55,329 bases of DNA. It comes from a virus (lineage: Duplodnaviria > Caudoviricetes). Under the pieces are notes generated by a model that saw only the letters and a program-made list of their open reading frames with translations, was not told the DNA's origin and did not search any database. The stretch is taken from IMG/VR virus record IMGVR_UViG_3300021091_000091, positions 1 through 55,329 of that record. One strand, given 5' to 3'. The translations under genes were made by a program, and so were the position numbers. Of this stretch, positions 1,875-55,135 are shown piece by piece (positions within the stretch are counted from its first letter, which is position 1; every line of letters starts with the position of its first letter).

Positions 1875-2471
1875 TTACGCTATTTCAGTTATAATTTCTC
1901 TCATTAAATCCTGTGCCTTGCAGTATTCACCACATACATCAGTACCAATTTGTTTTAGTGGATTTACGGATTCATTCATTGGGACCATAAATGCACCATG
2001 TGTAGATGGATTTGAAACAAAATCCCAACCAATTAATTCAAAATCTTCTTGTACTTCAACTCTATTTCCGTTAAGTGGTTTTGTAGAACCCATACCTCTT
2101 GATGAAATACCTAATAAGATACCTGCTTTTAATAATTCTTTAAGAATATTACCAGAAGGAGTTCCTAAAATTTCTACAGTACCACATAGGTCATCACCAT
2201 CCCACCAAATTTCTTTTATATTATGAGATACATTTTTGAGGTTGATAACTGTAGAATCGGGATGGTCTAATTCACCCAATGCTCTACGCTCCTTTATAAA
2301 AGTTGAATGATATTTCTTAGCTTCTCTTTCTAAAATTGGTTTTGGATATACCCTTCCATTTTGGTTTTCCGCACCAGCTCTTTGTAGAACACCTTTGACA
2401 ATCGTTCTACCAACTTCATCTTCTTTTACCTTACCTTCAAATAAGTGTGTTTCTATTAAAAGAGACTTCAT
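1875..2471 (-). CDS. Prohead core protease, T4 gp21-like (peptidase U9/S77-type)
   Basis: Motifs NQNGRVYP, ALGELDHP, VSHNI, GISSRGMGS and WDFVSNPSTHGA are characteristic of gp21-like proteases. Confidence 0.93.
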   Translation of the reverse strand: MKSLLIETHLFEGKVKEDEVGRTIVKGVLQRAGAENQNGRVYPKPILEREAKKYHSTFIKERRALGELDHPDSTVINLKNVSHNIKEIWWDGDDLCGTVEILGTPSGNILKELLKAGILLGISSRGMGSTKPLNGNRVEVQEDFELIGWDFVSNPSTHGAFMVPMNESVNPLKQIGTDVCGEYCKAQDLMREIITEIA

Positions 2472-4572: not shown

Positions 4573-4613
4573 TTACTTACCCTATATTTATTCTACCCTA
4601 TAAATTAACACAT

Positions 4614-4621
4614 ATAAATAT
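4614..4621 (-). promoter_or_regulatory. Putative phage late promoter motif ATATTTAT
   Basis: Intergenic, about 40 nt upstream of the ATG at 4572. Confidence 0.6.
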
Positions 4622-6422: not shown

Positions 6423-6860
6423 TTACCATTTTCTACAAGACCAATATCTTGCTTTTGTTCTCGGACCAGGATTATCACAATTGTGTCTAGCTCTAAAGTT
6501 TGCTCTCCTGCCAGGGTTATTCTTTTTGATTTTCATACCCTTCTGACCGAAGTTTACTTTAATAACTTTACCAGTCTTAGGGTTTTTTACATATACCTTA
6601 AATTTCTTTACATCACCGGCTGTTGGTTTACCCAATTTTACCTCTCTACCTTGATACTCTGCTTCGTAAACACAACCACAATTAGCCTCATCTAATGAAG
6701 TTTGATAAGATTTAAGATATGCAATAAAATCATCCATATCTTCTTGCTCAACATCTAATTCATCATAATCATCTAATGGGTTATCTGCCGGTGTATCTCC
6801 TTTTGAGTATGCTTTATCAATATACTCATCTTCTTTTAGAATATTTGTTAGTTTAATCAT
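6423..6860 (-). CDS. Putative internal head protein with leader; basic C-terminal Cys/Trp module
   Basis: MIKLTNILKE leader, then an acidic spacer, then VYE|AEYQGREVKLGKP...RRANFRARHNCD...ARYWSCRKW. Confidence 0.55.
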   Translation of the reverse strand: MIKLTNILKEDEYIDKAYSKGDTPADNPLDDYDELDVEQEDMDDFIAYLKSYQTSLDEANCGCVYEAEYQGREVKLGKPTAGDVKKFKVYVKNPKTGKVIKVNFGQKGMKIKKNNPGRRANFRARHNCDNPGPRTKARYWSCRKW

Positions 6861-9266: not shown

Positions 9267-11801
9267 TTATTTTTCGAAGAAGATACCTAAAATCTGATTT
9301 AGCGGTGCAAATGCACCTGTCAGTTTATAAGTGTTTCCACCATATACAAATACAATACCCTCATTTGGTACAATCTTATCAAATCCGCCTAAAGCATTTA
9401 ATCTCTGCAATTCTAATTTAAGTTTTTGTACTTGCTTAGGGTCACCACTTGCTTTTACCTGTTGTATAGTAGATTCCAATCTACTAACCATTTGTCTTTT
9501 TGCAGCTTTTGGATTTGCTGTAAGAACTGAACTCATAAACGAAAGAACTTCTGCCCCAACCCCTAAAAATATTTCTTCAAACTTCATTAGATTTTGTTTT
9601 GATATTTTTTGCTGGTCTTGCTTATCAGTCTGCTCAGCCCAAGCTTTTAATTTAACATCTTGAATTGTATTAATACGGAATGATTTATCACCAAAAGCCC
9701 ATCTTTTAACTAATCCTATTTTTTCTTGTGTGTCTAATTTTTTTGCACTTTTTTCTACAAATTTTGTCCACCAAGCTTGATGATAATCCGCAACACCATC
9801 CGAATCTACTAAATTAAATTCAGACTGTAATTTAGAAATCATTGAAATATATTTTCCTTGTAACTTAGAAAGTTTTTCTGATTTTGGGAGTTTTTGCATT
9901 GGTGGTCCTTGTATTGTGTACTTAGATTGAACATGTCCATTTACCTGTTTAATCATACCAGCCAATATTTTAGCGGCTTGTTGATTTTCTCCAATTATAT
10001 TTCCTTCTTTATCATATTCAAATGTTCCGTGAAATACTAGCAAAGGTTGTCCATAAGGAATTACGTTTACGGATGTTGGGTAAATTACTTCTAAGTTCAT
10101 AAAACAACTACCACCTTTGAATATCATTTTACGTTGTGGCTCTGATAAGGCTGATATTGCTTTTGATAAATCCGTCATTGCGAAATTATATGCATCTGTC
10201 AATCCACCCCTTCCTCCAAACTTTTGTGCAACTTGCCCAATAGTCATTGCACCTTCACCTTTATTTTTGAGATGCGATTTATTTCTTGCAGCAACTAATC
10301 TGCCATTTACCCAACTAATCGCCAATGCCTGTCCATCAGTTTTTTCTCTTGCTAATTCTAAATCACCATTTAAAGCTCTTACTACAATTTGTTTAAGGTC
10401 ACCAAATGTTAATCCCATTTCAATATCAAATGGGTGTGCCATATGACCGTATGCACCACCTTCTAATAAAAGAGATTCATCAATAGGTTCATATTTTTCA
10501 CTATCTTCTTTATCTAATTTGGATTTTAATTTCTTTACATCTTTTGGATTTGGTGCTCCATTAATATATCCATTCGGTAAACTTAAACCAACACCGGCTC
10601 CACCTGGCAATCCCATTTCATCCAACAAAGATTGTTCAAGTTCATCAATAATTTCGTTTATTTCTTCTTTTGATATTATTGTAGGTTTTTGATTTTTAGG
10701 TAGTTCCCAAAATCTTTTAGGTTTTTCTAAAGGAGTTTCTCTTTTCACTTCTTGCCAATCTTCTACGGTATGGGGGTCATCAGCTGGGTTAAGGGTACTT
10801 TGTAAAACATTTTGTACCTTATAATATGCTTTTCTAAATTGAGTTTCAGTATCTTTTGATTTACCCTTACCTCTCATAGCATCTGCTTTTGGTATAGCCA
10901 ATTGTGTATATCCACCTTGTTTATACCAATTTTCAGGTCTATTTTTGCCAAGTATTCTTTTTTGCCCATCAGCAACAAATGATGTGTCCGGTTCTTCACC
11001 GGCTGTAAAACCTGGTCCCGATACTTCATTTAATTTATCTTTTTTTGGAATTCTAAATGTTACGGCTTTTTTACCATTAATTGTTGGCATTCCATATTCA
11101 TCTTTGCTAATAGATTTTACAACAACTTTTTTGTTCTTAAATCTTCCCATTAATATAGTATCACCAACTTTCACATTCAATTTAATTTCTTCATTAATAA
11201 AATCTTTGAGAGTTTTAAGTTTAAGCGTTATTAATTTAAATACCTTTTCATCAAACTTAGGATAAGCTTTTAAAAATCCTTTTTTTCTTTCAGCTTCAGA
11301 ACCCGCACTTAACCAATAACGAACATCAGTACCACTAATAGGATTTGGTTGTGCTGGGGATGCGTACACATAACCTCGTTCTAAATAAGGTTCGATAACT
11401 TTTCCTTTATATTGTACAAAATATTTTCCGCCTAAACGGTCTTCATCTTTTTCTCCAACTACAGTAATAAAACCAGTAGTATCTTCATCAAATTTATTTA
11501 ATATTTCTTCTGGCGCATAAGGGTTTCTAACATTAACAATTTTGTTTGGTGAAATACCAAACATTTTTGTCATAATTACTTTTTTTTCGTTAAAATTAAA
11601 TGGAGATTTTTTTGAATCGGTTATATTTGATGTTCCAATATAAACGTTATCTTTCCCAAACTTTTTGATTAAGTGTTCAAAAGTTGCGTAGTGACCCTTA
11701 TGAAATGGTTGAAAGCGGCCCGAATAGACAACAACCACTTTATCTATCTTTGCCGCTTCTTCCAATATTGTTTCAACTAAATATTTTGTTAATCCCTTCA
11801 T
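9267..11801 (-). CDS. Multidomain polyprotein: HxGH cytidylyl/adenylyltransferase-like domain, small modules, and C-terminal ligase-superfamily nucleotidyltransferase-like domain
   Basis: N-terminal YSGRFQPFHKGH...ISGTDVR is a class I nucleotidyltransferase pattern. C-terminal EKTDG, NLEVIY, EGIVF and YKLTG resemble ligase motifs I, III, IV and V. Domains are bounded by ILEE, INEE, LNE, LDE and LLE. Confidence 0.7.
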   Translation of the reverse strand: MKGLTKYLVETILEEAAKIDKVVVVYSGRFQPFHKGHYATFEHLIKKFGKDNVYIGTSNITDSKKSPFNFNEKKVIMTKMFGISPNKIVNVRNPYAPEEILNKFDEDTTGFITVVGEKDEDRLGGKYFVQYKGKVIEPYLERGYVYASPAQPNPISGTDVRYWLSAGSEAERKKGFLKAYPKFDEKVFKLITLKLKTLKDFINEEIKLNVKVGDTILMGRFKNKKVVVKSISKDEYGMPTINGKKAVTFRIPKKDKLNEVSGPGFTAGEEPDTSFVADGQKRILGKNRPENWYKQGGYTQLAIPKADAMRGKGKSKDTETQFRKAYYKVQNVLQSTLNPADDPHTVEDWQEVKRETPLEKPKRFWELPKNQKPTIISKEEINEIIDELEQSLLDEMGLPGGAGVGLSLPNGYINGAPNPKDVKKLKSKLDKEDSEKYEPIDESLLLEGGAYGHMAHPFDIEMGLTFGDLKQIVVRALNGDLELAREKTDGQALAISWVNGRLVAARNKSHLKNKGEGAMTIGQVAQKFGGRGGLTDAYNFAMTDLSKAISALSEPQRKMIFKGGSCFMNLEVIYPTSVNVIPYGQPLLVFHGTFEYDKEGNIIGENQQAAKILAGMIKQVNGHVQSKYTIQGPPMQKLPKSEKLSKLQGKYISMISKLQSEFNLVDSDGVADYHQAWWTKFVEKSAKKLDTQEKIGLVKRWAFGDKSFRINTIQDVKLKAWAEQTDKQDQQKISKQNLMKFEEIFLGVGAEVLSFMSSVLTANPKAAKRQMVSRLESTIQQVKASGDPKQVQKLKLELQRLNALGGFDKIVPNEGIVFVYGGNTYKLTGAFAPLNQILGIFFEK

Positions 11802-11816
11802 ATAGTTTGTTACTAT

Positions 11817-11824
11817 ATAAATAT
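11817..11824 (-). promoter_or_regulatory. Putative phage late promoter motif ATATTTAT
   Basis: 16 nt upstream of the ATG at 11801. Confidence 0.6.
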
Positions 11825-17024: not shown

Positions 17025-17046
17025 AATTAAATATTATTTTATATAT

Positions 17047-17054
17047 ATAAATAT
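17047..17054 (-). promoter_or_regulatory. Putative phage late promoter motif ATATTTAT
   Basis: 23 nt upstream of the ATG at 17024. Confidence 0.55.
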
Positions 17055-25930: not shown

Positions 25931-26107
25931 ATGAAAAAGTACGCAATGATACAAATTGATGCTGATATTCATCAATTATTAAAGGAATTTTGTAAAGATA
26001 AAGGTTACAAAATTAATGGGTTAGTAGAAACCCTAATAAAAGAAAAGGTGGAATCTATCAGAAAAATTCCACCTAAAAATGTATTACCAGTAAATCCTAA
26101 AAATTAA
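25931..26107 (+). CDS. Ribbon-helix-helix (Arc/CopG/MetJ-like) DNA-binding protein, 58 aa; absent from the ORF track
   Basis: MKKYAMIQIDADIHQLLKEFCKDKGYKINGLVETLIKEKVE... shows an alternating beta strand, helix, G turn, helix pattern. It fills the otherwise empty intergenic gap. Confidence 0.7.
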   Translation: MKKYAMIQIDADIHQLLKEFCKDKGYKINGLVETLIKEKVESIRKIPPKNVLPVNPKN

Positions 26108-31084: not shown

Positions 31085-31105
31085 TTTTTATAATTTTATC
31101 TCTAT

Positions 31106-31113
31106 ATAAATAT
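31106..31113 (-). promoter_or_regulatory. Putative phage late promoter motif ATATTTAT
   Basis: 22 nt upstream of the ATG at 31084. Confidence 0.55.
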
Positions 31114-31981: not shown

Positions 31982-31996
31982 TTATTTTTATTTTAT

Positions 31997-32004
31997 ATAA
32001 ATAT
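31997..32004 (-). promoter_or_regulatory. Putative phage late promoter motif ATATTTAT
   Basis: 16 nt upstream of the ATG at 31981, immediately after a terminator. Confidence 0.6.
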
Positions 32005-33970: not shown

Positions 33971-36900
33971 TTAATCAACTTCAAGTATTGGTTCACCACT
34001 ACCTCTACCGGTCTTAGCCACTCTAAGTATGTTAGGATTGGTTGTAAATGTTTCTACTGGAGATAACCCATCAGGTGTTGTTGCTGTGGTTTGTTGAGAA
34101 CCCTTCCAAAAAGAACGTATCATACCTTCACCTAAATTATTAACATATCGGTAATGACTTGGTAAATAACCATTTAAAGGTGTGACTGAAACTATTTCAT
34201 TACCCACAACTAAACTTCCACTAAATGGAATTAAAGAAACTCTGAATTTATTGTATGGAACTAAAACATCTTCGTATTTTACTTGCGAGCCCGATACTGC
34301 TCCATTTGTAGGGTATCCAGAAACTTGTGTTGATACTTTTCGGTTTTTTTGTTCCTTCACTAAATAAATATTTTGTCTACTTTGAGTATAATTTCCAAGA
34401 AAATCATACTTTTTAAAAATACCAACTCCACCTATTGCAAAAAGACCATAACCTAAGTTTGATATAGAATCTTTTTCCATTCCGATAATTTCTATATTAA
34501 ATACATCTGCTTCTCCACTTAATGTAGCACCATTTGGTACTGTGATTTCAGCATTATAAAAAGGAGCGATAGCTTCTAAAATAGTATTATCATCTAAATT
34601 TATTTCAGTAGTATAAGTAAGATACGATGAATCTAATTGTGTTTCAGAATCAAGGTTTATTGTTGTTTCATAATTATTTATATCACCCACTAATGTTGTA
34701 GAATTATTTAAATCTAATTCACTATTATAAACATCGTATGTTAAATTAATACTTATATCGTTAAATGTATTAATAGATGTTTCAAAATCATTTCTTAACG
34801 AAACTGGTTTATCCCAGCGTGTTTTACTTCTTTCTAAATAGTGTGGTTCTATTAACAAACCTTTTGAAACCTTAGCTCTTGCTGGGGCTAAATCAATCAA
34901 AACATCAAATAAAGATTTATTAATATATTTTACTAATTGAATATATTCATTAATGTTTCTATCTAACCTCTGAAAATAATATTCACGCAATTCATCTAAT
35001 TCTCTATAAGTTTCTTTATATTCATCAGATGGGTCACCAATATAGTTATCAATATTAAATTCTCCAAAAGATTTTATAATATCCATATTTAATTCTTTTA
35101 TTGGAGAGAAAAATAATCCTAAACGAGATGAATCTATTGGGGCTCTATCAAACGATTTTTTTGTTGCTCTGATTCTATGTGAAAGATTTGAAATTAAAGT
35201 TTGTTCTTCAAAACGAATTTTATTTGAAACGTTAAATCCTAAAGATGGTACAGTTGCCGTAACCGTCCTTTCGTATGGTGTATATTGAAAAGGATATGTT
35301 GATGCAGAATACATATTACTTGCCGAAGCATATAATTCACCATAACTTTGATTTATTGCTACATTTTTAATAAATGGGTCTGCTGTTCTATCTTTTGGAT
35401 ATTCAAAATCTAAACGGAATAATAAATCAGTTGTAGAAGCAGTATATGAATTACCAGCTATTGAATCAGGCTGAAGTACATGATTATTAAATTTACTTCT
35501 TTGTAATGGAACTCTCCATAAACGGAATTCATCAATATTACCTTTAAATCCATTACCACCAATTTGTATAAATGAACCACTAGTCCATTGTGTATCTTCT
35601 GTAAAAATAGACATACTAACTGATGTGATAATTCTATCTCCATTAGATGTTCCTAACCAAACTTCAAATAATGAACCATTTCCAGCGTAATCATTTCTAT
35701 TAATACAAATAGTAGAATAATATTCTGTAGATATTGGAAAATCTAAACTTCCGGTTACCAAATCAGGACCAAATACATATTCAACAGACGAAGTTATATA
35801 TGGATAATAAACACCGCTTGATTCAAAATAAGATACCAAAGATGCATCTCCACCAAAATTTAATTCTAATTTTCCAAATGAACCCGTTGTTTGTATCAAG
35901 TCTAAAGTCCATTGACTTGCCGATAGTAATGTATATTGAGTATTTGGTAAAGTATTTGGTTTAAAATTAAACTCAATGACTGCTGGTTTGTTTCCATCAA
36001 CTTCTTTCCATGGAATTATTAAGCTTGAACTTTCTTGTAAATAAATAGCTGCAGTCCTATCTTCAAAAGTAAATTTTTGAGAACCACCATTTGTTGGGTC
36101 AGTAGGTCCTCCGAATTCCATTATTGTTAAAAGAGATTGTGGTACACCATAACATGCCATAATAGCTTTCATAGCTCGTGCTGTACCTTTGTGTTTTAAC
36201 AAATATGGTAAATTATTTATAATTCTTCTCCAAACTTGATTATTAGCTTCTTCTAATGATATTGAGTATTTTTGTAATCCTTCTTTATACTGTCCAAATG
36301 CATATTCCCACAAATATTGAGAATCAAATGCTCTCTTACCATCCCAACCAAATGATTTTAATAAATGCCATACCAAATCATCAGGTATACCCATATCAAC
36401 TTTTTCCTCTATAACTTTTACTCTATTTAATGCATTAATATAACTCCAAATAATATCAAAGTGCTGTCCTATCATATCTAAGAACAATAAAAATTGGTCG
36501 TTATTATAATCTGAATAAATAAATTCAGGTATATTGTTTTTTAAAAGATTATTATTGTACTTATCATAATTTATAGCTGATTGCACCAAAGCTTCGTACC
36601 ATGCTATAACATTTGTATTTGTAGTTGGACTAAGTATATACGATGGTACACTTGTTATTGGATTTACAAATATTTGTTTAGGATATGCTAATGAATCAGT
36701 TGAACTATATAAATAATATTCAAATCCATCTAAATTTCTAATTGCTGCATTTAAATCTGCTAATATTTTTTTTGCCTCATTAGCTTGACTGGGACTTGTA
36801 AATTGCTGAACTTCCCAAAGGATATCATACAATCCATCTTCCGTTAATATTTGAGCACCATCTAAAGTTAATACTACTTCATGTGTAGAAGCAGCTTCAG

Positions 36901-39139
36901 CTGTCAATCCACCTTCATACGCTTCATATGGTGGAGTAAATGTATTTGCAGATAATGCATTATATCTATTTTTTAATTTTTCAATTAATTTTATTTTAAA
37001 GAAAAAGTTTTCTGCTCTTTCGGTAGCTGAACCAAAATGGGAAAAGTTTTCAAATGTATAGAAAGAACCACTCGAATATTGTATATTCAATTTTTTGGTA
37101 TCAATGCCAACACTTTCTAAGTATCTATTTGCTATTGAATCCGAAGTTGTAGAACCACTAGCTATTAAATCCGTAAATACTTCGAATCCAAGTCCGGTAT
37201 CTGGCTCTATTGAAAAGTTTGGCCCTCTTAATTGTGGACAAACATCAGTATCAATACCAGTAATTGAAATGGTTTCTATTATAGGATTCGATTGAATTTT
37301 AGAAATCCATACTTGGTCATTTGGTTGAATTGCTGTTGATATTGGTTCGTATAGTTTTAATATCAAAGATTCTCTATCCCCAAGCCAAGTTGTAATTATT
37401 TTGTTATTACCATTACCTAAATGTAAAACGTGCGTTAAATATTTTGAGTTTTCTTCTGCAAATATGTTTGGATTCAATTGTCCCAAAAATCCTTCAGCTA
37501 TTCTATTTATTGCAGTTTCTTTTGGTACTATTTTATTAGACTTTTCAAAATTTATAATAATTAATTCATCTTTACCAACTACTTTTTCTATACCACTTAT
37601 ATTATAGGGTGTTAATACTAAAGTAATTGAGTTACCATCTTGTTTAGATGCAAGTTTTAATAATTCACCATAATTAAATTTAATTTTTCCAGCCGCCTGA
37701 GCTTTTGTTGTTGTAGAAGTACCAAAAGGTTTTATTAAAATGTAATCAGTATTTATTGATTGCCATGCTATTTCAAAATCAACATCATATCCACAATAAT
37801 CTTTACCTTTTATTGTAGAAGGATAGATTATATTTCGTATATCTGGTATTCCTACATATGCTTCACTTACTACATTAATAATAGATTCTATTGATTCACC
37901 ATTTCCATCTTGATTTGATGGTACTAAACTTAATTTATATACACCAATTTTATCAAAATATTTTTCAGGTATTGCTATAGCTGCCGTTTCTCCTCTTACA
38001 GTTTCAAAAGGATTTCCGAAATCAATAGTTTGGTTATTAAGAAAAGCTTTTACATTATCTAAATTTCCAGCTTTTTTTAATCCAATAACTACTCCAGCTT
38101 TTGAATTAATATTATATTTAGAAAATTCTTTTTCATTACTAAAAAATAAACTTGGTAATTCTTTTACAGTAATATTAATAAATTCTGATATTATTTCTAT
38201 CGCCAAATTTGATTTTAAAATAAAATCACTTTTTATACTTTCTAATGTATCCTCTGCTTCAATTAATTTTTTTTCTGTTTTACCCGTTAAGACTATACTA
38301 ACAATTCTAAAAGTTTTATTAGCTTCAACAATTTTTACCTTTGTACCAGATGGATACAATAAATTATTTTCACCTTTTTTTAATTCAATTCTTTCGGAAT
38401 CATTTATTAATAAAATTGCAGAAAACTCGGGCCCATTTAAAGAAATATCTAAAGATTCAAGTTTTTCTTTAGGTGTATAATCAATTGGTAATCTATCTTT
38501 TAATTTAAAATTATTAAAATCTAAATTTTTTATTTTACTAGATACATCATAATCATATGGTACAAGAATATCATTTTCGTATTTTGTTATCCTTAAAGTA
38601 TAAATTGGTTCTTTTACAAAAACTGGTTCTGAAGCTCGTTTTGCGCCCGAATCAAAATTTCTATTTGGAAGCCCATCTTTGTCAAATTGATTGTAATTAT
38701 TATCGACAGGAGTCAAATCCCTAATAAAAGAATCGTCTTTATAATATTTGTAATCTAAAAGAGTTTCAATAATATATTTTTCATTATTAATATACCCTTC
38801 TTTTTTTACTTCAATAGTATAACTATTATTTTGCTTTAGTACATCTTCTACATTTATATCAAAAGAATATGGTGTTGATTTAAATATATTTTCACCATTT
38901 ATACATACATAAGAATTTTTTTCAGAAGAATTGATAACAAATCTGAAATCAGGTGTATAGTTTATTGTGCCAATTGATTCTGGTTTTTTTGATACCGGAA
39001 TAGGTGCGCCGGTTGATGGGTTTTTTATATATACATCCCCATTTTCAGAAACACCGCTTTCTAATGCATTTAAAAATTCTAATTTTTGTGCATCACTTTT
39101 TGGTTCTAAACTATCCTCTATATCAAGTATTCTTGCCAT
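33971..39139 (-). CDS. Large baseplate wedge-like protein (gp7/P2 gpI-like core plus LamG-like domain)
   Basis: FLDMIGQHFD...LLKSFGW...NNLPYLLKHKGTARAMKAIMACYG (KGT wedge motif); FKGNIDEFRLW (LamG/ConA-like). Confidence 0.65.
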   Translation of the reverse strand: MARILDIEDSLEPKSDAQKLEFLNALESGVSENGDVYIKNPSTGAPIPVSKKPESIGTINYTPDFRFVINSSEKNSYVCINGENIFKSTPYSFDINVEDVLKQNNSYTIEVKKEGYINNEKYIIETLLDYKYYKDDSFIRDLTPVDNNYNQFDKDGLPNRNFDSGAKRASEPVFVKEPIYTLRITKYENDILVPYDYDVSSKIKNLDFNNFKLKDRLPIDYTPKEKLESLDISLNGPEFSAILLINDSERIELKKGENNLLYPSGTKVKIVEANKTFRIVSIVLTGKTEKKLIEAEDTLESIKSDFILKSNLAIEIISEFINITVKELPSLFFSNEKEFSKYNINSKAGVVIGLKKAGNLDNVKAFLNNQTIDFGNPFETVRGETAAIAIPEKYFDKIGVYKLSLVPSNQDGNGESIESIINVVSEAYVGIPDIRNIIYPSTIKGKDYCGYDVDFEIAWQSINTDYILIKPFGTSTTTKAQAAGKIKFNYGELLKLASKQDGNSITLVLTPYNISGIEKVVGKDELIIINFEKSNKIVPKETAINRIAEGFLGQLNPNIFAEENSKYLTHVLHLGNGNNKIITTWLGDRESLILKLYEPISTAIQPNDQVWISKIQSNPIIETISITGIDTDVCPQLRGPNFSIEPDTGLGFEVFTDLIASGSTTSDSIANRYLESVGIDTKKLNIQYSSGSFYTFENFSHFGSATERAENFFFKIKLIEKLKNRYNALSANTFTPPYEAYEGGLTAEAASTHEVVLTLDGAQILTEDGLYDILWEVQQFTSPSQANEAKKILADLNAAIRNLDGFEYYLYSSTDSLAYPKQIFVNPITSVPSYILSPTTNTNVIAWYEALVQSAINYDKYNNNLLKNNIPEFIYSDYNNDQFLLFLDMIGQHFDIIWSYINALNRVKVIEEKVDMGIPDDLVWHLLKSFGWDGKRAFDSQYLWEYAFGQYKEGLQKYSISLEEANNQVWRRIINNLPYLLKHKGTARAMKAIMACYGVPQSLLTIMEFGGPTDPTNGGSQKFTFEDRTAAIYLQESSSLIIPWKEVDGNKPAVIEFNFKPNTLPNTQYTLLSASQWTLDLIQTTGSFGKLELNFGGDASLVSYFESSGVYYPYITSSVEYVFGPDLVTGSLDFPISTEYYSTICINRNDYAGNGSLFEVWLGTSNGDRIITSVSMSIFTEDTQWTSGSFIQIGGNGFKGNIDEFRLWRVPLQRSKFNNHVLQPDSIAGNSYTASTTDLLFRLDFEYPKDRTADPFIKNVAINQSYGELYASASNMYSASTYPFQYTPYERTVTATVPSLGFNVSNKIRFEEQTLISNLSHRIRATKKSFDRAPIDSSRLGLFFSPIKELNMDIIKSFGEFNIDNYIGDPSDEYKETYRELDELREYYFQRLDRNINEYIQLVKYINKSLFDVLIDLAPARAKVSKGLLIEPHYLERSKTRWDKPVSLRNDFETSINTFNDISINLTYDVYNSELDLNNSTTLVGDINNYETTINLDSETQLDSSYLTYTTEINLDDNTILEAIAPFYNAEITVPNGATLSGEADVFNIEIIGMEKDSISNLGYGLFAIGGVGIFKKYDFLGNYTQSRQNIYLVKEQKNRKVSTQVSGYPTNGAVSGSQVKYEDVLVPYNKFRVSLIPFSGSLVVGNEIVSVTPLNGYLPSHYRYVNNLGEGMIRSFWKGSQQTTATTPDGLSPVETFTTNPNILRVAKTGRGSGEPILEVD

Positions 39140-44686: not shown

Positions 44687-45109
44687 TTAGACAGTAAATG
44701 TTAGAGTTTCCATATTAGGATTATCTTTTAATCTAAACTTTAAAGAAACCTCAACTCTATTATTATCTTTTAATTCTTTTGTTTGCTGAATATCAATTGA
44801 ATTTATTTCAACATAGGGTAACCAATTATTAATAGAATTATTAATTGTTTCTTCTATTCTATCGGGTAAATCTTCAGTATTTTGTTCAAACAAAAGTTCC
44901 TGCAAACCACTTCCTAAATTTGGTTGCATTATTCTTTCAAATCTTTTAGTCAAAAGAAGACTTTTAATGTTTGTACTTAATTGTTCAGTAGTTGTATAAG
45001 ATTGATTAAAAGCAGAATTTCCTATTTGTAATGGTAATGTTATACCAATAGCGAAATCATTATACTCTTTAGTATCTAATACTCTTTTTTTACCTAATAG
45101 AATAGCCAT
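44687..45109 (-). CDS. Baseplate wedge subunit gp25/GPW-like
   Basis: NIKSLLLTKRFERIMQPNLGSGLQELLFE...INNWLPYVEI. Confidence 0.9.
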   Translation of the reverse strand: MAILLGKKRVLDTKEYNDFAIGITLPLQIGNSAFNQSYTTTEQLSTNIKSLLLTKRFERIMQPNLGSGLQELLFEQNTEDLPDRIEETINNSINNWLPYVEINSIDIQQTKELKDNNRVEVSLKFRLKDNPNMETLTFTV

Positions 45110-46691: not shown

Positions 46692-47981
46692 TTATTCATA
46701 AATTGATACGTGCATAGGGTCATTGTTTTTTAACCACGTCAAACCTTCATTTTGGAAAATTTTTGCAACTTCCAAAAATCCTAAATCAAAATCATTAAAA
46801 TCTCTAACTTTTGTTTTTCCAGAATATATACCATCTGTAGCGAATTTATAACCATATGGATATATTTCGGTATTCATATCTATTGCCAATCCCCAACTAT
46901 GATTTGATAAGCGTGTTCCATTTGTTACATTTCTTAGAGCCAACCCACCACCACAATTTTTTATATATTTTTGAAATCCTTTTGCTTCGATTTTTTTAAA
47001 TGCAGGTTCAACAACTGCTTTTAATTGTTTGTGAACCAAAACAGAAGTACTTCCGCTAGAAGTTGGTATTATTATTTTAGCACAATTTTGTTTTAAATAC
47101 TCTGGATTTAATTTGAACCAAACTCTAACACCCTTACCACCAGTTTTTTGAAGGTATTCATTTATTTCACTTGATGTAGTTAGTTGGTTTGTTAATGGAA
47201 ATTTGTCTGTTCCTTTTTTGTACCAACTTTGTTTAGATGTAGTTGGAATATCCACTTCAAAATTTCCATACTGCCCAATACCCGGCCAAATTCCATTTGC
47301 AACTGCATCATATAGTTTTTTATCACCTTTTACAGGATCTATTTTCTTTTTTGGTTTATCTTCAGGTTGTTCTTCCGGAACATCAGATGTACCGGCATCA
47401 TCTCCTTGTTCCAATCCCAATTCTTTTTTATATTCAATAACACTTTGTTTTATTTGAGTTGGTGTTGGCAATCTATCATCATATATAACGATTGTTGTTT
47501 TAAAAATTTCATCATAAGTTTTTTGGCTTTCCTTATATTTTTCTAAATCTTCTTTAACACTAACCGGCGGGTCTTGTGGTGGTGCTAATACTTGCTGGGG
47601 AGGTGTCCATGTACCAATATTAGTAACTATATTTGATGTTACAGCTATATTTGCAGTCGCACCAACAGCTGGTATGAATGGGATTGGTACTTCATTTAAT
47701 ACTGCTCCTGTCCAATATGCCTGTACTGCTTTACCAAGCTCACCTACTAAATCATAAGGTTGTTTGGATGATTGTCCTTTTAATAAAACTGCATAAACAA
47801 GTTCCTCCATTAATTTAGTATTACCTTTTTTTACCTTAACAAAATTTAAGGTATCATATCCTCTTTTTATCGCAGCATCATACTCTGTTGTCCAAAGTTT
47901 TGCTACTCTTTTTAAATCAGGCAAACTATTTGGATTATTTGCATATTTTAATATATTAGATTTAAATAATGCCCAAGACAT
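46692..47981 (-). CDS. Virion-associated peptidoglycan hydrolase, C-terminal M15-family Zn peptidase
   Basis: R...SNHSWGLAIDMN...W...DPMHVS (H-x6-D...H zinc ligands). Confidence 0.82.
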   Translation of the reverse strand: MSWALFKSNILKYANNPNSLPDLKRVAKLWTTEYDAAIKRGYDTLNFVKVKKGNTKLMEELVYAVLLKGQSSKQPYDLVGELGKAVQAYWTGAVLNEVPIPFIPAVGATANIAVTSNIVTNIGTWTPPQQVLAPPQDPPVSVKEDLEKYKESQKTYDEIFKTTIVIYDDRLPTPTQIKQSVIEYKKELGLEQGDDAGTSDVPEEQPEDKPKKKIDPVKGDKKLYDAVANGIWPGIGQYGNFEVDIPTTSKQSWYKKGTDKFPLTNQLTTSSEINEYLQKTGGKGVRVWFKLNPEYLKQNCAKIIIPTSSGSTSVLVHKQLKAVVEPAFKKIEAKGFQKYIKNCGGGLALRNVTNGTRLSNHSWGLAIDMNTEIYPYGYKFATDGIYSGKTKVRDFNDFDLGFLEVAKIFQNEGLTWLKNNDPMHVSIYE

Positions 47982-47984
47982 ATT

Positions 47985-48722
47985 TTATTTATTTGTATAA
48001 TTAGTTGATGTTGGTATTTGTGATTGAGCTTGTTGAACACTACTTTGTACTGAACTTTGAGCTTGAGAAATAGCTGATTGTGCAGAAGATTTTGCTTGCG
48101 ATATAGCTGATTGTGCCGCACCTTGAGCTTGAGATACCGCGCTTGTAATTACTGATGCATCTAGTTTTGGAATATTTGGTACTTTTGGACTTTTAGGTAT
48201 TTTTGCATCTTTTATTTTAGCAAGTTTATCTTTGTTCGAAAATAATTTTGGTTTTTTAAGTTTTTTTGGTTTAAATTCTTTTACTTTTGGTAACTTTGGT
48301 AATTTAAATCCTTTTATAGCTCCTACAATACCCGCAACTGCACCAGTAGCTGCGCCCGCTATCGCGCCCGCCTGTCCTGCTAAAGCACCTGCCTGTCCTG
48401 CTAAAGCACCTGCCTGTCCTGCTAAGGCACCTGCTTGTCCTGCTAAAGCACCTGCCTGTCCTGCTAAAGCACCTGCCTGTCCTGCTACGGCACCTGCCTG
48501 TCCTGCCAAAGCACCACCTGCTTGTCCTACCAATGCACCTGCTTGTCCTGCTACGGCACCTGCCTGTCCACTTATTTGAGAAGTTGTTTGAGAAACTAAT
48601 TGTTGATTTTGAGAGGTAGCTTGTTGTAATTGTGTTGCTAATTGCTGTGTTTGCTGATTTTGCTGTTGAATTGTATTTTGCAAATCATTTTGAGTAATAG
48701 GTATAATTGTTGTCTTTGGCAT
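47985..48722 (-). CDS. Low-complexity repeat protein (Gln-rich, GQAGALA repeats, Lys/Pro-rich, 11-aa SAISQAQ repeats)
   Basis: Translationally coupled between the spike-like gene and the M15 peptidase. Confidence 0.6.
   Translation of the reverse strand: MPKTTIIPITQNDLQNTIQQQNQQTQQLATQLQQATSQNQQLVSQTTSQISGQAGAVAGQAGALVGQAGGALAGQAGAVAGQAGALAGQAGALAGQAGALAGQAGALAGQAGALAGQAGAIAGAATGAVAGIVGAIKGFKLPKLPKVKEFKPKKLKKPKLFSNKDKLAKIKDAKIPKSPKVPNIPKLDASVITSAVSQAQGAAQSAISQAKSSAQSAISQAQSSVQSSVQQAQSQIPTSTNYTNK
48358..48570. repeat. 21-bp coding tandem repeat, about 10 copies (GQAGALA)
   Basis: Unit cctgcctgtcctgctaaagca with synonymous variants and one 3-bp insertion. Confidence 0.95.
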
Positions 48723-49964: not shown

Positions 49965-50357
49965 TTACTTTACTGCTTTTTTAAGTTCTTCTAATTCAAA
50001 TTCTAAATCATCTACTCTTTCCACCTCTTGTTTAGTTTCTTCTAATTCTTTTAGAAGTTGATTTTTTTCAAATTCTGAAAGAAATCCATCTTGTCCTTCA
50101 ATCTTTTTATCAGCTGCTATAATTTTTATTGCTATTGTTGCTAATTTTACTAATTGGTCATCATTTTTTACTGAACTATCAATTAGTGATGATATAACAG
50201 GTCCTATGGCAGCAACATCATTTGTATGCTTAACCATTTTTTTCAATTCTTCAATAAGACCTGATATTTTTTGTTTTTTTGAAAATTGATTATTATAGAT
50301 ATCTTCAAAAAGAGAACTTAGATTTTTTCCTTTAAATAACTCGAATTCTGTTGACAT
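49965..50357 (-). CDS. Hypothetical helical protein
   Basis: 130-aa ORF preceded by the late motif. Confidence 0.5.
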   Translation of the reverse strand: MSTEFELFKGKNLSSLFEDIYNNQFSKKQKISGLIEELKKMVKHTNDVAAIGPVISSLIDSSVKNDDQLVKLATIAIKIIAADKKIEGQDGFLSEFEKNQLLKELEETKQEVERVDDLEFELEELKKAVK

Positions 50358-50380
50358 ACTTTTTATTTTAGTGTACGTCT

Positions 50381-50388
50381 ATAAATAT
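50381..50388 (-). promoter_or_regulatory. Putative phage late promoter motif ATATTTAT
   Basis: 24 nt upstream of the ATG at 50357. Confidence 0.6.
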
Positions 50389-50408: not shown

Positions 50409-51221
50409 TTATTTTGTGATTATCTCAATCTTAATCTTTGGTTGATAATCTTTTGGTAATTTATTATTTATACCCTTAAATACTTTTACTTTATCCTTAA
50501 AGTAAGTTATTTCTATTATTTTGTCTGTCAAATTCATTACAGTTTGGGAAGATGTAGACATTTCGGATGTATCTCTTTTCATATTAAGTTGGGGTCTATT
50601 TGGAAAAAATTCTTTTCTCATTGCTGCTGCTATTTCTTTCCAATCTTCCACTGTATTAACTGATTTTTCAGCCGATATTTTTCTCATTTTTGATGACAAA
50701 TATTTTTCTCCACTTGTATATCCTGCATCAGTAAAAAGATGACCATGATTTGTACGAACAACAGGTGATTTGGAATTTTGTAATTGTACATCCGGCTTAT
50801 GCTTTGATGTAGTTTCAATACTAACCATATGTTTTGGAGATGATACAAATGTATGCCCTTTAAGAGATAATCCACTCTTACCCTTATAAGATATTGTAGC
50901 TCTGATTGCATCTATGAGTGTTGGTTGTTTTAAAATGTTTCTCATCTTGTCACCATCTGGCCCAGGCTTACCCCCTTTTTTAACTATCTTAGCTTCTGCT
51001 TCATCGTGCCCCACTAATAAAGCAGAGTTTACCACTCCAATTCCATACTCATTAAGACCCTCACTCCAATCAGTAATTAAATCATGTAAATAAGCAACTT
51101 CCACACCATCTATAATAGTATGTACAATTTCAAGTTCTGGATTATACATTCTATCCCTATTTTTAGCAAGAATAAATTTATCACCAACTTCTTTAGATAC
51201 AATAATACATTCGTTTATCAT
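50409..51221 (-). CDS. N-terminal nucleophile (Ntn) Cys hydrolase (C45/C59/NRDE-like)
   Basis: MINE-CIIV...FILAKNRDR...WSEGLNEYGIGVVNS...VRTNH...SSKMR...T.SQ.VMNL match the Ntn hydrolase pattern. Confidence 0.8.
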   Translation of the reverse strand: MINECIIVSKEVGDKFILAKNRDRMYNPELEIVHTIIDGVEVAYLHDLITDWSEGLNEYGIGVVNSALLVGHDEAEAKIVKKGGKPGPDGDKMRNILKQPTLIDAIRATISYKGKSGLSLKGHTFVSSPKHMVSIETTSKHKPDVQLQNSKSPVVRTNHGHLFTDAGYTSGEKYLSSKMRKISAEKSVNTVEDWKEIAAAMRKEFFPNRPQLNMKRDTSEMSTSSQTVMNLTDKIIEITYFKDKVKVFKGINNKLPKDYQPKIKIEIITK

Positions 51222-51763
51222 CTTACAGTACTACTAAATGATTTTTTTAAATCATATGTTTGTGAAAGGTCTATAACCTGTAATCTTAGTTTTGTCAAAC
51301 CATGCTTTTGTTTAAGAATATCCATTACTTTTTTAGCTTCTGGCATATTCTTAGCTTTTGTATATGCTACAACTTCATCCTTTTCGCCAGGCGGAACACC
51401 CCATATAATAAACTCTTTTTCTTCTTTTAGGAATGATTTTAATGTTATTGTTTGTTCACTTTTTTTAATACTATTTATAAAACTTCTATATACAGCAGCT
51501 GCTGAAACTTTACCTGCTGCTTTAGCCCTCTGTTCCATAGCAATTGCTGCCTGTATTTTGTGAGCGTGTGGTTTTCCACTATTTTTTATTTTATTTACGC
51601 TACTTTTTGCATCTTTAACCGTAGCGAACTTTAATCCATGAATTGTCCCTTTGGGATTTTCATCAGTATATAAATCACTATGATTTGAACTACCCTTATG
51701 TTGACCTGATTTTCGTGGTATTCTATTATTTGCTTCCTTTAATAATAATTTTAAACTTATCAT
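51218..51763 (-). CDS. Putative internal head polyprotein (two leader-bearing modules)
   Basis: MISLKLLLKE leader, plus a second internal ITLKSFLKEE before module KEFIIWGVPPG.... Confidence 0.55.
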   Translation of the reverse strand: MISLKLLLKEANNRIPRKSGQHKGSSNHSDLYTDENPKGTIHGLKFATVKDAKSSVNKIKNSGKPHAHKIQAAIAMEQRAKAAGKVSAAAVYRSFINSIKKSEQTITLKSFLKEEKEFIIWGVPPGEKDEVVAYTKAKNMPEAKKVMDILKQKHGLTKLRLQVIDLSQTYDLKKSFSSTVR

Positions 51764-52335
51764 ATACTTGGTAATCCTTGTGCTTTTGCAAATTTATTTA
51801 TAAACCTTTTTGTTGTTCCATCATTTAAAACATTTACCCATTCTTTAATGGCCTGTCTTGTTATTACATTTTTCCACTGCTTATAATTTGATACCATTCC
51901 AAAATTTGAACCTGGCGTTGGTATATCTCTACTATCTTTTGTTTTATCAGGATATAATTCTGAAAATACTTTATCTAATTTTTCTTGTGCTATTTTACTT
52001 TCTAACCATCTACTAACCAAACTCCTTTCGTATTCTAATTTAGAAAAATCTATCTTTTGTTTTTCACCATTATTTCTAGCTTTCTCAATTTGCTTTTCAA
52101 ACTCTTTTAATTTCTTATCATTTTTAAGAGTAAAATAAACATACTTATTAAAATTTCCATCATCTAAAGAATCCAACCATTTAATATGTGGATTTCCAAC
52201 AAACTTTTTATATTCTGATTTATTTCTGAATCCTCTAACCACCATTGAAATTGTCCACATTATAAATTGAGCTGCAGCAAATATTAAAAGTTCTTGTAAA
52301 AAGCCTTCGTTCAATATTTTTTTTAATCTAATCAT
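51760..52335 (-). CDS. Leader-bearing protein with a hydrophobic (possible transmembrane) segment
   Basis: MIRLKKILNE-GFLQE-LLIFAAAQFIMWTISMVV. Confidence 0.55.
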   Translation of the reverse strand: MIRLKKILNEGFLQELLIFAAAQFIMWTISMVVRGFRNKSEYKKFVGNPHIKWLDSLDDGNFNKYVYFTLKNDKKLKEFEKQIEKARNNGEKQKIDFSKLEYERSLVSRWLESKIAQEKLDKVFSELYPDKTKDSRDIPTPGSNFGMVSNYKQWKNVITRQAIKEWVNVLNDGTTKRFINKFAKAQGLPSI

Positions 52336-53741
52336 TTTAATTCGGCGTTTTTTAATTCTCTTGCTAAATCATGCATAATTCTTTTTGTAAATTGAACTGA
52401 ATCTTTACCTAAAAATGATATACCTGAAATGTTTGTAATATCTTTATGTCCACCTGATTGTTTTACAATTAAATCGTATGCTGAAATGGTTATTGTTTCT
52501 AATTTTTGTTTTTCAGGCTCAGTAAGATTATTATAATGCTTTTTGGAAATTGCATCTATTAAATCTTTTTTATCATCATTAGGTATTCCTTTTGCTTCTT
52601 TACCAAATAATGCGGATAGGTCTTTTAGTGTGAATCCAAAAGAACGTTCAGAACCTAAAGTAAGTATATCAGATTCCATTTTCTTTTTTATATCTCTAAA
52701 TGTAAGTTGTTTACTGTCTAAATAACTTTTATATTTTTTTAATATCTTCATCGCTATATCACCCAAATTAAATTGATTTACACCCTTTTTAAATGGATTT
52801 TTTGAAGCTTGTACTAATCCCATAGGATATCCTAAAATCATATAATGAGCATCAGGATTCGTTTTAAATGGAATATATCTATCATACCCACCACCTCTAA
52901 GATTACCCATACCATATTGAACAATTACATTACCAACTTTTCCATAATTTCCATTTTCCAAGTTTTCAATATCTCTATTACGAGATAAATCCCTTTGCAT
53001 TTTTTCAGGTCTTTGAGAATGAATATAAACTGCTTGTGGAATATCTAAATCTTCTGGTTTTAATCCTGCTGCTTTAGCGTTTTTCATAGTAACATTAAAA
53101 ATACTAATCAAAGATGGATTTGCTTCCATTACTATTTTTTCTAAAAATCTTGGTTGATTTTTAAATGCTAATAACACTTTATTTGCAACAAATCCCATAG
53201 CCACTCTATTTTTTGAAGATGATTTACTTCTATCATACTTAAAAGCTGTTGCTATAAATTCATCTACATCAATTCCTTGTCTTGCAAAATCCGCTGAATC
53301 AACTGTTGAAATAATTTTTATATCTTCGTTTGGAAATATATCATTCGGTGAAAGTTCTTGAGAAATTGTTTCTACGTTTGATGGTTTCTTTTTAAAGCTA
53401 GATGCAGTTCCTCTTTCTACTCCACTTTGAGATTCATGATGGTCAGTATGTATTGTTACACCTGGTTTTCCGTGTGCAAAATCTACTAAAACAACCATAT
53501 GACCTGGAGTTGGTTTTGGTGCAGAATATTCTCTACCACCATATTGTATGTGCTCAGCATTTACAACTTTTATACCATACCTTTCTAAGTATGCTTTCAT
53601 TCCGATTGCACTTGTTACTCCATCCAAGTCCATATGAAAGTATAAATCAGCCTTATTATTTTCTTTTGCTAATCTTCGTATATCTCTAATTCCGGATTCG
53701 GTGAGTAATACCTCATTTAACAAATTAGAAAGCTTAATCAT
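52332..53741 (-). CDS. DHH-family phosphoesterase with leader peptide
   Basis: YFHMDLDGVTSA (motif I), VLVDFAH (motif II), IHTDHH (motif III), STVDSAD, and C-terminal SGGHK (DHHA1-like). Confidence 0.82.
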   Translation of the reverse strand: MIKLSNLLNEVLLTESGIRDIRRLAKENNKADLYFHMDLDGVTSAIGMKAYLERYGIKVVNAEHIQYGGREYSAPKPTPGHMVVLVDFAHGKPGVTIHTDHHESQSGVERGTASSFKKKPSNVETISQELSPNDIFPNEDIKIISTVDSADFARQGIDVDEFIATAFKYDRSKSSSKNRVAMGFVANKVLLAFKNQPRFLEKIVMEANPSLISIFNVTMKNAKAAGLKPEDLDIPQAVYIHSQRPEKMQRDLSRNRDIENLENGNYGKVGNVIVQYGMGNLRGGGYDRYIPFKTNPDAHYMILGYPMGLVQASKNPFKKGVNQFNLGDIAMKILKKYKSYLDSKQLTFRDIKKKMESDILTLGSERSFGFTLKDLSALFGKEAKGIPNDDKKDLIDAISKKHYNNLTEPEKQKLETITISAYDLIVKQSGGHKDITNISGISFLGKDSVQFTKRIMHDLARELKNAELK

Positions 53742-54202
53742 TATCCCTTACATTTCCTCCAGCTACCGCCTTTTCCTTTGTAATTTTTTGCAGCCCATCC
53801 ATTTGCGTACGCTGATGGATAAACATCAAACTTCTTTTTAGCTGCTGCTTTAGATGCTGCCCATTTACCCGGATCGGTTGGACAATTCTTTTCTAAGAAT
53901 AATTCCATTTTTTGTTCTACAGTTAATACTTTTTCCATATTTTCGTTTTTCTTTTTCTTTTTACCAGCACAATGTGCTTTTTGTGAGAATCCTTTTGGGT
54001 TACTACAATTTATAGATTTTTTATATTTTTGTGACCAACCTTCTTTTACTTTTTTTGGTTTTTCTTTTTTAAATGGATTTGGATTTTCTTTACTACCTCT
54101 ATAATCATAAGCAAATTCATGCTTTTCTGGATTTACTTTTTTGACATCGTATTTCTTTCCAGTTTCTCTATTTTTAACAAATATATCAGATAGACGTATC
54201 AT
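53741..54202 (-). CDS. Putative internal head polyprotein of short basic modules
   Basis: MIRLSDIF leader; VKE|GWSQKYKKSINCSNPKGFSQKAHCAG; FLE|KNCPTDPGKWAASKAAAKKKFDVYPSAYANGWAAKNYKGKGGSWRK. Confidence 0.55.
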   Translation of the reverse strand: MIRLSDIFVKNRETGKKYDVKKVNPEKHEFAYDYRGSKENPNPFKKEKPKKVKEGWSQKYKKSINCSNPKGFSQKAHCAGKKKKKNENMEKVLTVEQKMELFLEKNCPTDPGKWAASKAAAKKKFDVYPSAYANGWAAKNYKGKGGSWRKCKG

Positions 54203-54549
54203 TATTCTCCAGTTTTTTCTTTTATAATTAACTCACCTAAAACTTCTAATAATCCAACTATTTTTTGAAATTGTACTGCATCAGGTTTTTCACTTGCCAT
54301 CAATTTATGCAAAGATTCCATATATTGATTATAAGATGAAGTTGCTTTTTCTAAATTAAACTTACCTTCTGCTGCTTCTTTATAGTGTGGAAGTTTTACT
54401 ACAAAGTGTTCATATGTAAGAATTGCAGGTCCACCTTTAGCTTTTGCATCAGATGCTATCTTAGTTGCACCGTCCAATCTCTTATTTGCAAAATCAGATA
54501 TTTTCATATCCTCAAATTCTTCTTTTAATATTTCAGATAATTTAATCAT
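54202..54549 (-). CDS. Leader-bearing hypothetical protein
   Basis: MIKLSEILKEE leader; helical body. Confidence 0.55.
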   Translation of the reverse strand: MIKLSEILKEEFEDMKISDFANKRLDGATKIASDAKAKGGPAILTYEHFVVKLPHYKEAAEGKFNLEKATSSYNQYMESLHKLMASEKPDAVQFQKIVGLLEVLGELIIKEKTGE

Positions 54550-54863
54550 TATGCACCTGTTTTTACAAATGTTGGTTTTTGACCTTTTGATTTTTCACCA
54601 CCTTTCTTACTATCTCCTGCCTTAGATTGAGCTGCTCTTTTTCTTTTTACAAATGATGCTCTACCATCAGGCCCTAACTTAGCTGCTTTATCTTTTGATA
54701 AACATGCCGCATATGCCGAACCTTTTTTACTATCACCACACTTACCTACTTTCTTACCTTTGGAATCATATCTATCCCAACCACCTCCGGATGATGAACC
54801 ACCACCACCTTTACCAAACCATTTACGAAGGTCTTCTCCTATTATATCTCTTAGCAGTATCAT
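54549..54863 (-). CDS. Leader-bearing small basic Gly/Lys-rich protein
   Basis: MILLRDIIGE|DLRKWFGKGGGG...GWDRYD...GKCG...AACL...RKRAAQ. Confidence 0.55.
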   Translation of the reverse strand: MILLRDIIGEDLRKWFGKGGGGSSSGGGWDRYDSKGKKVGKCGDSKKGSAYAACLSKDKAAKLGPDGRASFVKRKRAAQSKAGDSKKGGEKSKGQKPTFVKTGA

Positions 54864-55135
54864 TAGAATGCTATTGTTACGATTTCATTATCTATTTCCA
54901 CCCAACGAACTCTGAGTGATACTAATTTTTTCATATCATCGGCTTCAAGTCTATATCCGTTTCCCATTGTTTGTCTTGCTTCAATATCAACAATATATCC
55001 GTGAATACCTTGAAAAATTTGTGTATTTTCTCCACCAATTATTTTTTCAAAAGCCATTACTTGCTTTTTTCTTTGTGGGTCCAGTTGATTAAACTGAATT
55101 TCTTCCGCTTCGTTGAGTTGTGTAAGTCTAATCAT
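54863..55135 (-). CDS. Leader-bearing hypothetical protein
   Basis: MIRLTQLNE|AEE leader. Confidence 0.55.
   Translation of the reverse strand: MIRLTQLNEAEEIQFNQLDPQRKKQVMAFEKIIGGENTQIFQGIHGYIVDIEARQTMGNGYRLEADDMKKLVSLRVRWVEIDNEIVTIAF

Follow-up and report, generated by a model that had tools for sequence, protein, structure and literature searches.

Introduction

Hydrolases of the N-terminal nucleophile (Ntn) type are textbook self-activating zymogens. Among the cysteine enzymes of this superfamily, isopenicillin-N acyltransferase (IAT) of Penicillium chrysogenum (MEROPS C45; PDB 2x1c for the precursor, 2x1d/2x1e for the mature enzyme) has an alpha-chain of ~100 residues and is self-cut after Gly102, and N-acylethanolamine acid amidase (NAAA) and acid ceramidase (C89), bile-salt hydrolase (BSH) and penicillin V acylase (PVA; both C59), and TANGO2/NRDE, which have a common fold, self-cleave or start with Met-Cys. 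We know of no C89-, C59- or TANGO2-type enzyme that depends on a separate dedicated protease. In this study, we describe a gene for a protein of this fold in a stretch of viral DNA of 55,329 nucleotides (IMG/VR virus record IMGVR_UViG_3300021091_000091, positions 1 to 55,329; Duplodnaviria, Caudoviricetes), hereafter called the window, which is a virus fragment estimated to be 31% complete. The protein begins M-I-N-E-C, and its predicted nucleophile, Cys5, stands directly behind a putative cleavage site for a phage prohead protease.

In phage T4, the prohead protease gp21 cuts after Glu in I/LxE (PMC12991175), and the capsid-targeting sequence (CTS) comprises ten residues, of which residues 4 and 7 target the protein, while processing depends on residues 8 and 10 and is blocked by Asp at position 10 (PMC9026906). 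Phage prohead proteases also turn on the CBASS CD-NTase by an I/LxE-type cut (Hobbs and Kranzusch 2026 preprint, PMC12991175); however, that enzyme is a sensor of the host and its cut falls within a surface loop, whereas here a phage enzyme would be cut at its N-terminus. With the T4 internal proteins IPI-III and Alt, the window has in common an S77 protease gene, an N-terminal leader ending in (L/I)-x-E and neighbouring leaders of ten residues with L8/E10; in contrast to these, the Ntn leader has only four residues, and the cut, which in T4 merely releases cargo, would here also create a catalytic N-terminus. The best explanation, and one that we hold to be somewhat probable, is that the prohead protease cuts the Glu4-Cys5 bond in trans, because the site is conserved, matches the gp21 rule, co-occurs with S77 and recurs in an unrelated, DHH-like family.

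Results and Discussion

The N-terminus and fold of the Ntn protein

The product of the Ntn gene (Table 1) begins MINECIIVSKEVGDKFILAKNRDR, and the translated open reading frame (ORF) confirms both the M-I-N-E-C start and the Cys codon given in the preliminary description of the window. The start codon shares bases with the stop of the gene upstream (ATGA), and since a TAG occurs in the same frame four codons before it, no longer N-terminus is possible. Among the 46 minus-strand ORFs, [LI]xE and [LIVM]xE occur at 1.4% and 1.9% of positions, respectively, and hydrophobic-x-Glu precedes one of 93 Cys residues, namely Cys5 of the Ntn protein. By itself, a single instance of MINE↓C (the arrow marking the putative cut) is weak evidence; it is conservation that carries weight.

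The Ntn family was identified only via relatives and fold, and not via sequence searches with the query: a Pfam scan (E ≤ 1) gave nothing relevant, its two sub-threshold matches (DUF6961 and Retrotrans_gag) being attributable to chance, the PHROGs scan matched no family, and a PDB sequence search (E ≤ 10) returned no match with either the single query sequence or the family profile. PF03417 (AAT, peptidase C45; gathering cut-off 23.2 bits) likewise has no match to the query at E ≤ 1, marking the protein as a distant relative and not a Pfam member, yet this profile matches 32 of 61 relatives scanned singly (E ≤ 0.1; best E 8.2e-10), with scores above the gathering cut-off for relatives P0146 (30.9 bits) and P0161 (25.0 bits). 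TANGO2 (PF05742) matches 3/61.

An AlphaFold2 model built on the family alignment (pLDDT 93.1, pTM 0.91) gave 103 Foldseek matches in the PDB at E ≤ 1e-3. The top ranks are all Cys-Ntn enzymes, led by IAT (2x1c/2x1d, E 1.2e-9) and followed by CV2077, bile-salt hydrolases, NAAA and penicillin V acylases. The model and its matches place the protein in the four-layer alpha-beta-beta-alpha fold of the superfamily. In a second structural alignment (VIA-align), Ntn enzymes reached Z scores of 19-21 (maximum 20.9); for IAT, Z was 19.2-19.8 with an rmsd of 2.7 Å over 216-220 residues, and for the C89, C59 and TANGO2/NRDE enzymes it was 16-20. In each case, residue 5 of the model coincides with the residue that opens the mature chain (IAT Cys103, NAAA 126/128 with Cys126 as nucleophile, BSH Cys2, PVA Cys1, TANGO2 Cys2), while residue 1 is matched to residues 99, 122 and 139 of IAT, NAAA and ceramidase, respectively, in their uncleaved precursor forms. 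The phage protein differs from IAT in that identity is just 12-14%, its leader has four residues and ends in Glu, and its family is viral. Cys5 is invariant in 61/61 aligned sequences, as are K20, R22, D23, N158 and eleven further positions. We take R22 and D23 to be probable counterparts of the Arg and Asp that follow the nucleophile in choloylglycine hydrolases, and presumably R22, D23 and N158 correspond to R18, D21 and N175 of BSH, the Asn forming the oxyanion hole; the NRD motif after the Cys is also common to the phage protein and to the NRDE/TANGO2 name. That the protein is a Cys-Ntn hydrolase with Cys5 as its nucleophile, as first proposed from the sequence, is thus well supported by the model fold, Foldseek and the superposition of Cys5 on known nucleophiles.

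The family comprises 874 proteins at E ≤ 1e-3 in a 90%-clustered collection, or 450 cluster representatives at 50%. It is almost purely viral, as only two family loci were found in 185,579 species genomes, both on contigs of metagenome-assembled genomes, and it is a large viral family without a name in Pfam and PHROGs. The only phage isolates with a homologue in the phage collection are the Chryseobacterium phages MA9V-1 and MA9V-2. Stand-alone relatives with a four-residue leader or none keep C5, R22, D23, N158 and the other invariant residues; therefore, the domain must act on some substrate besides itself. Judged from the structural neighbours, this could be a host N-acyl amide, a suggestion made with low confidence.

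The residues before the nucleophile

The residues preceding the Cys were classified in 272 proteins (the 120 best matches, 150 cluster representatives, the MA9V-2 homologue and the query). Glu occupies P1 in 147/272, and in 146 of these 147 P3 is L, I, V or M (L 84, I 46, V 12, M 4; T in the remaining one), while 12 different residues occur at P2. A second type has Ala, Gly or Ser at P1 (76/272), always with Lys (47) or Arg (29) at P3. A further 38 proteins start with Met-Cys, two are odd (LGQ↓C and RLV↓C) and nine are truncated; none of the 225 leader-bearing proteins has Asp at P1. The 150 cluster representatives alone give 48 Glu, 76 small, 16 Met-Cys, two other and eight truncated. At the DNA level, [I/L]-x-E directly precedes the Cys in 79/79 readable of 80 close viral loci, the remaining one being cut at its 5' end, and both GAA and GAG are used. 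Leader length varies from 3 to 433 residues.

The proposal that (I/L/V)xE before the Cys is conserved in phage members but not in bacterial ones can accordingly be upheld for phages with an S77 protease, while phages without S77 follow a different rule; the bacterial comparison group hardly exists, consisting of the two loci mentioned above. It might also be argued that the N-terminus is never processed, MINE-Cys being a by-product of start-codon drift and the internal Cys either working as it stands or having lost its activity. The lability of leader length would suit this, and the site is putative, read from sequence alone; nonetheless, we regard it as highly improbable, since all 261 classifiable proteins offer a route to a free Cys (Met-Cys or a P3/P1 motif), with LGQ↓C and RLV↓C as the only odd cases, the catalytic constellation is invariant and both Glu codons are in use across the 79 loci. 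A lipoprotein reading, with signal peptidase II cutting before the Cys, was rejected, because a signal peptide is missing and a lipobox is formed by neither I-N-E nor K-x-A.

The prohead protease and leader-bearing proteins

The premise that the phage possesses a gp21-type protease proved correct: an S77 gene was identified by PF03420, phrog_207 and tblastn, the last matching 2601 phage records, among them those of T4-like coliphages (30% identity). It lies in the head module with the terminase and portal genes. The N-terminus MK(S/N)LLIE↓T is kept in 7/8 relatives, and the LIE at the protease's own N-terminus is reminiscent of T4 gp21, which has an LIE site close to its N-terminus (PMC9026906). 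In MA9V-2 the S77 domain is found inside a 1213-aa open frame, and MA9V-1 is annotated with a 4044-bp 'prohead core protein serine protease'.

Directly upstream of the Ntn gene lies an array of seven genes, six of which have [LI]-x-E at residues 7-9 or 8-10 of a CTS-like leader of 9 or 10 residues. The MI[KRSL]L start is found in 9/46 minus-strand ORFs, namely this array, the gene between the terminase and portal genes, and 287-1312. Moreover, [LI]8 with E10 occurs in 7/46, against ~0.6 expected from the 1.4% background, and six ten-residue leaders have this combination (MIKLSEILKE, MIRLKKILNE, MISLKLLLKE, MILLRDIIGE, MIKLSNLLNE and MIKLTNILKE). The products of 53741-54202 and 287-1312 start MIRL and have no Glu at the leader-end position. 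The strict MI+L leader pattern was found in only 1/20 other loci, the leaders of other lineages being different. L8/E10 is also present in an 844-aa cytidylyltransferase-like protein (MKGLTKYLVE↓T); in relative P0156, a domain of this kind is fused to the Ntn domain on its upstream side, a hint that the two may be linked in function.

One array product, a 469-aa DHH-like protein, has a double site, MIKLSNLLNE-VLLTE↓SGIRD, and is a candidate packaged nuclease or phosphodiesterase. Its family counts 3613 homologues at E ≤ 1e-5, many with a precomputed PF01368 assignment. Glu stands at P1 before an SGIRNI-like start in 113/113 alignable of the 120 best homologues (the remaining seven being truncated or divergent), with P3 = L 73, I 23 and V 17, 14 different P2 residues and leaders of 11-62 residues. 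As the DHH-like protein cannot use Ntn chemistry, the hydrophobic-x-Glu junction must be common to the leader-bearing proteins of these phages in general, and the rule common to both families fits a shared trans-acting protease. The (I/L)xE sites, which the preliminary description took to be functional, thus look to be so.

Table 1. Positions of the Ntn gene, its N-terminal elements and other features of the window.
Feature	Position	Strand	Remarks
Cys-Ntn hydrolase gene	50409..51221	-	270 aa, single domain; AAT/C45-, NAAA-, choloylglycine-hydrolase-like fold
Four-codon propeptide M-I-N-E	51210..51221	-	Putative gp21-type site, P3 = Ile2, P1 = Glu4
Cys5 codon (TGT)	51207..51209	-	Predicted N-terminal nucleophile once processed
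NRDR motif codons, N21-R22-D23-R24	51150..51161	-	R22 and D23 invariant
gp21-type prohead protease, Peptidase_S77	1875..2471	-	N-terminus MKSLLIE↓T; PF03420 E 1.8e-31, 104 bits; phrog_207 E 2e-52
Array of seven genes, all products start MI(K/R/S/L)L	51218..55135	-	Directly upstream of Ntn gene; last overlaps it in ATGA
DHH-like 469-aa protein	52332-53741	-	Leader MIKLSNLLNE-VLLTE↓SGIRD (double site); PF01368 E 4e-4, below cut-off
Leader-bearing gene, MIKLTNILKE↓D	6423..6860	-	Between terminase and portal genes
844-aa cytidylyltransferase-like protein	9267..11801	-	L8/E10 (MKGLTKYLVE↓T)
Terminase	6922-8523
Portal	4639-6414
Conserved 130-aa gene (MSTEFELF...)	49965..50357	-	Next after Ntn gene; opens baseplate module
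gp25 domain	44687-45109
Baseplate-module protein	46692-47981	-	429 aa; Peptidase_M15_4 at C-terminus, E 7.5e-8
Heptad-repeat protein	47985-48722	-	245 aa; PHROG tail-protein match
Very large ORFs	17486-25840, 33971-39139, 26097-29249	-	2784, 1722 and 1050 aa, respectively
Intergenic TATAAATA matches	50380-50387, 4613-4620, 11816-11823, 17046-17053, 31105-31112, 31996-32003	+

Cleavage in trans or autoprocessing

Site type was compared with protease type across records. S77 was detected in 8/9 records of the Glu type, in 4/7 records of a second Glu-type clade (polyproteins, MKKHIEE↓C; all but one of these records being fragments), and in both MA9V-2 (homologue FINE↓C) and the window itself, giving 14/18 for the Glu type against 0/12 for the [KR]-x-small type. 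Among the latter are records of 288 kb and, with terminal repeats, 222 kb; searches of [KR]-x-small records for other proteases were also negative (S78 0/12, ClpP 0/4, S49 0/4). Eight further S77-positive records were left out of the count, their loci holding no Ntn motif.

The alternative is classical autoprocessing, in which an N-to-S acyl shift takes place at Glu4-Cys5 and the P3/P1 pattern reflects docking of the propeptide in the enzyme's own cleft. It would not account for the recurrence of the gp21-like P3/P1 rule in the DHH-like family, which lacks Ntn chemistry (113/113), nor for the tracking of S77 by site type, and the lack of Asp at P1 matches the Glu specificity of gp21. For these reasons, we consider autoprocessing less likely than cleavage in trans, yet it is a strong competitor, as a number of observations speak for it and weigh against cleavage in trans. 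The solved relatives mature by autoproteolysis, the nearest folds (IAT, NAAA, acid ceramidase and PVA) being self-processing, and PDB titles list the uncleaved nucleophile mutants NAAA C126A, ceramidase C143A and PVA C1S; the PVA of B. sphaericus removes its own three-residue propeptide. Ntn hydrolases are described as made as precursors that auto-activate, and auto-activation is called their hallmark (PMC9140057). In a folded Ntn precursor, the scissile bond would lie in the protein's own active-site cleft, and access for a second protease is not evident. A predicted complex of the S77 protease with the Ntn protein (score 0.01, mark 0.32) speaks neither for nor against binding.

The comparison with S77 has its own weak points. 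On a FastTree phylogeny of the Ntn domain without leader (256 leaves), the Glu and small types are only two changes apart, and there are therefore few independent contrasts for the co-occurrence with S77; in addition, the records are mostly fragmentary, and the 12 of the small type include one phage sampled twice. S77 is present in 4/6 records of the Met-Cys type, indicating that the cap is not essential in S77 phages. Met-Cys variants, needing only Met removal, occur among relatives 83-84% identical, and at least nine transitions between Met-Cys and leader states were counted on the tree, so that neither cap nor latency is essential. The silence of the enzyme in the producing cell, as first envisaged, is thus not obligatory, the Met-Cys state having arisen or been lost at least nine times.

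The small-type clade also lends itself to autoprocessing, as a small P1 residue is typical of self-processing Ntn enzymes and a Cys placed inside polyproteins as long as 2792 aa would be in keeping with a module that cuts itself. The lineage of giant phages with [KR]-x-[AGS]↓Cys (loci L083-L090, L107, L111 and L164; proteins P0226, P0161, P0242 and P0263) has its own N-terminal motif, (R)VA(A/S)R(F/Y/H/W)L, which occurs on a number of proteins unrelated to one another and, within chains, immediately ahead of the Ntn domain. Whether [KR]-x-[AGS] follows the RVAxRxL leader of the non-Ntn proteins of this lineage is not clear (~4-5/10 by eye), and in this lineage the motif may instead be part of the Ntn domain and serve autoprocessing. 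As a tentative extension of cleavage in trans, the S77 protease may have taken over the baring of the nucleophile, which every characterised Ntn hydrolase is known to carry out by itself, with amidases armed only at head maturation and delivered to the next host alone or in polyvalent proteins, and [KR]-x-[AGS]↓Cys may mark another maturation protease in giant phages without S77, S78, ClpP and S49.

Possible packaging and timing of activation

According to the proposed mechanism, the enzyme would be made with a four-residue cap, M-I-N-E, ending in the hydrophobic-x-Glu motif of the phage's S77 protease; a cut after Glu4 would free Cys5 as the N-terminal nucleophile, and the enzyme would be switched on late, once the protease is active. 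The cap may be a shortened version of the ten-residue MIKLSxLLxE leaders on the upstream genes. Some relatives have full CTS-like leaders (MIKLKDILTE-GKALLRE↓C and MIKLINLIKQPLNE↓C), which match the upstream-neighbour leader MIKLSNLLNE-VLLTE↓S. Others are fused to further domains: in the small-type clade, the Ntn domain lies within proteins of up to 2792 aa with RNA ligase, poly(A)-polymerase head, HAD, 2'-5' ligase, topoisomerase I, SOD, GNAT, DUF5661 or DUF5872 partners, and in the Glu type the partners are cytidylyltransferase-like or zeta-toxin/AAA_33-like kinase domains. Such proteins resemble the polyvalent proteins of Iyer et al. 2017 (PMC5512222), which are thought to be delivered with the DNA; relatives P0226, P0161 and P0156 are multi-domain, whereas the window protein has a single domain. 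Four peptidase superfamilies are listed in that paper's main text, where the term Ntn does not occur. As relatives have a full leader or are part of polyvalent proteins, the Ntn family is probably cargo packed into heads and delivered with the DNA.

For the Ntn protein of the window itself, packaging in the head can be suggested only with reservation. Its four residues fall short of a targeting sequence of ~10 residues, which is found on the upstream leader genes and some relatives, and the targeting half of a T4-type CTS, with residues 4 and 7, is absent from the cap (PMC9026906). Furthermore, T4 gp21 alone can cleave and activate a cytoplasmic protein, the CD-NTase (PMC12991175), and activation, which the preliminary description placed in the matured head only, therefore need not occur there. 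The gene also adjoins the baseplate module, which already includes an M15 cell-wall peptidase. It is thus conceivable that the prohead protease cuts the enzyme in the cytoplasm and that the enzyme stays unpackaged, the cap serving as a late timer for use in the producing cell, e.g. in envelope breakdown or metabolism before lysis. This appears improbable to us, given the relatives with full CTS-like leaders or in polyvalent proteins with RNA-repair, topoisomerase and kinase-like domains (PMC5512222), the overlap and co-orientation of the Ntn gene with the leader-gene array, and the Met-Cys variants, which need no timer. The two papers on MA9V phages make no mention of mass spectrometry and report SDS-PAGE only.

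Genomic context

The conserved 130-aa gene that opens the baseplate module follows the Ntn gene in 7/12 loci compared, in Glu-type and Met-Cys-type loci alike. Within this module, which also encodes a gp25 domain, the 429-aa protein with the C-terminal Peptidase_M15_4 domain is likely a tail-associated cell-wall peptidase, and the 245-aa protein consists of ~12 tandem AGQAGAL-type heptads between Gln-rich ends. Three very large ORFs are also present (Table 1).

Promoter and terminator scans of the window gave results at chance level. The motif TATAAATA on the plus strand (TATTTATA on the coding strand) has nine matches, a total at chance level; six of the nine are located in short gaps between genes, at 15-41 nt upstream of minus-strand starts, and one of them falls between the Ntn gene and the next gene. 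This placement suggests a promoter element, in which case the leader-gene operon would end with the Ntn gene.

Significance

The arrangement joins two known kinds, Ntn zymogens and gp21-processed cargo. Among the papers listed in literature searches, none was seen to combine an Ntn hydrolase with a prohead protease, a CTS or an ejection protein, and a search for a C45 acyltransferase in phage virions returned no paper. If the prohead protease does cut the Glu4-Cys5 bond, an Ntn hydrolase armed by a separate dedicated viral protease would represent a new activation logic for the superfamily, and the creation of a catalytic residue would be a new use of a prohead protease, beyond the trimming of structural proteins. 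The Ntn domain is a recurrent module of polyvalent, probably injected, phage proteins, and the conserved P3/P1 rule would offer a sequence-only readout of head-protease specificity in uncultured phages. Finally, the enzyme's substrate may lead to an amide of the host, in its envelope or in signalling, that phages attack.

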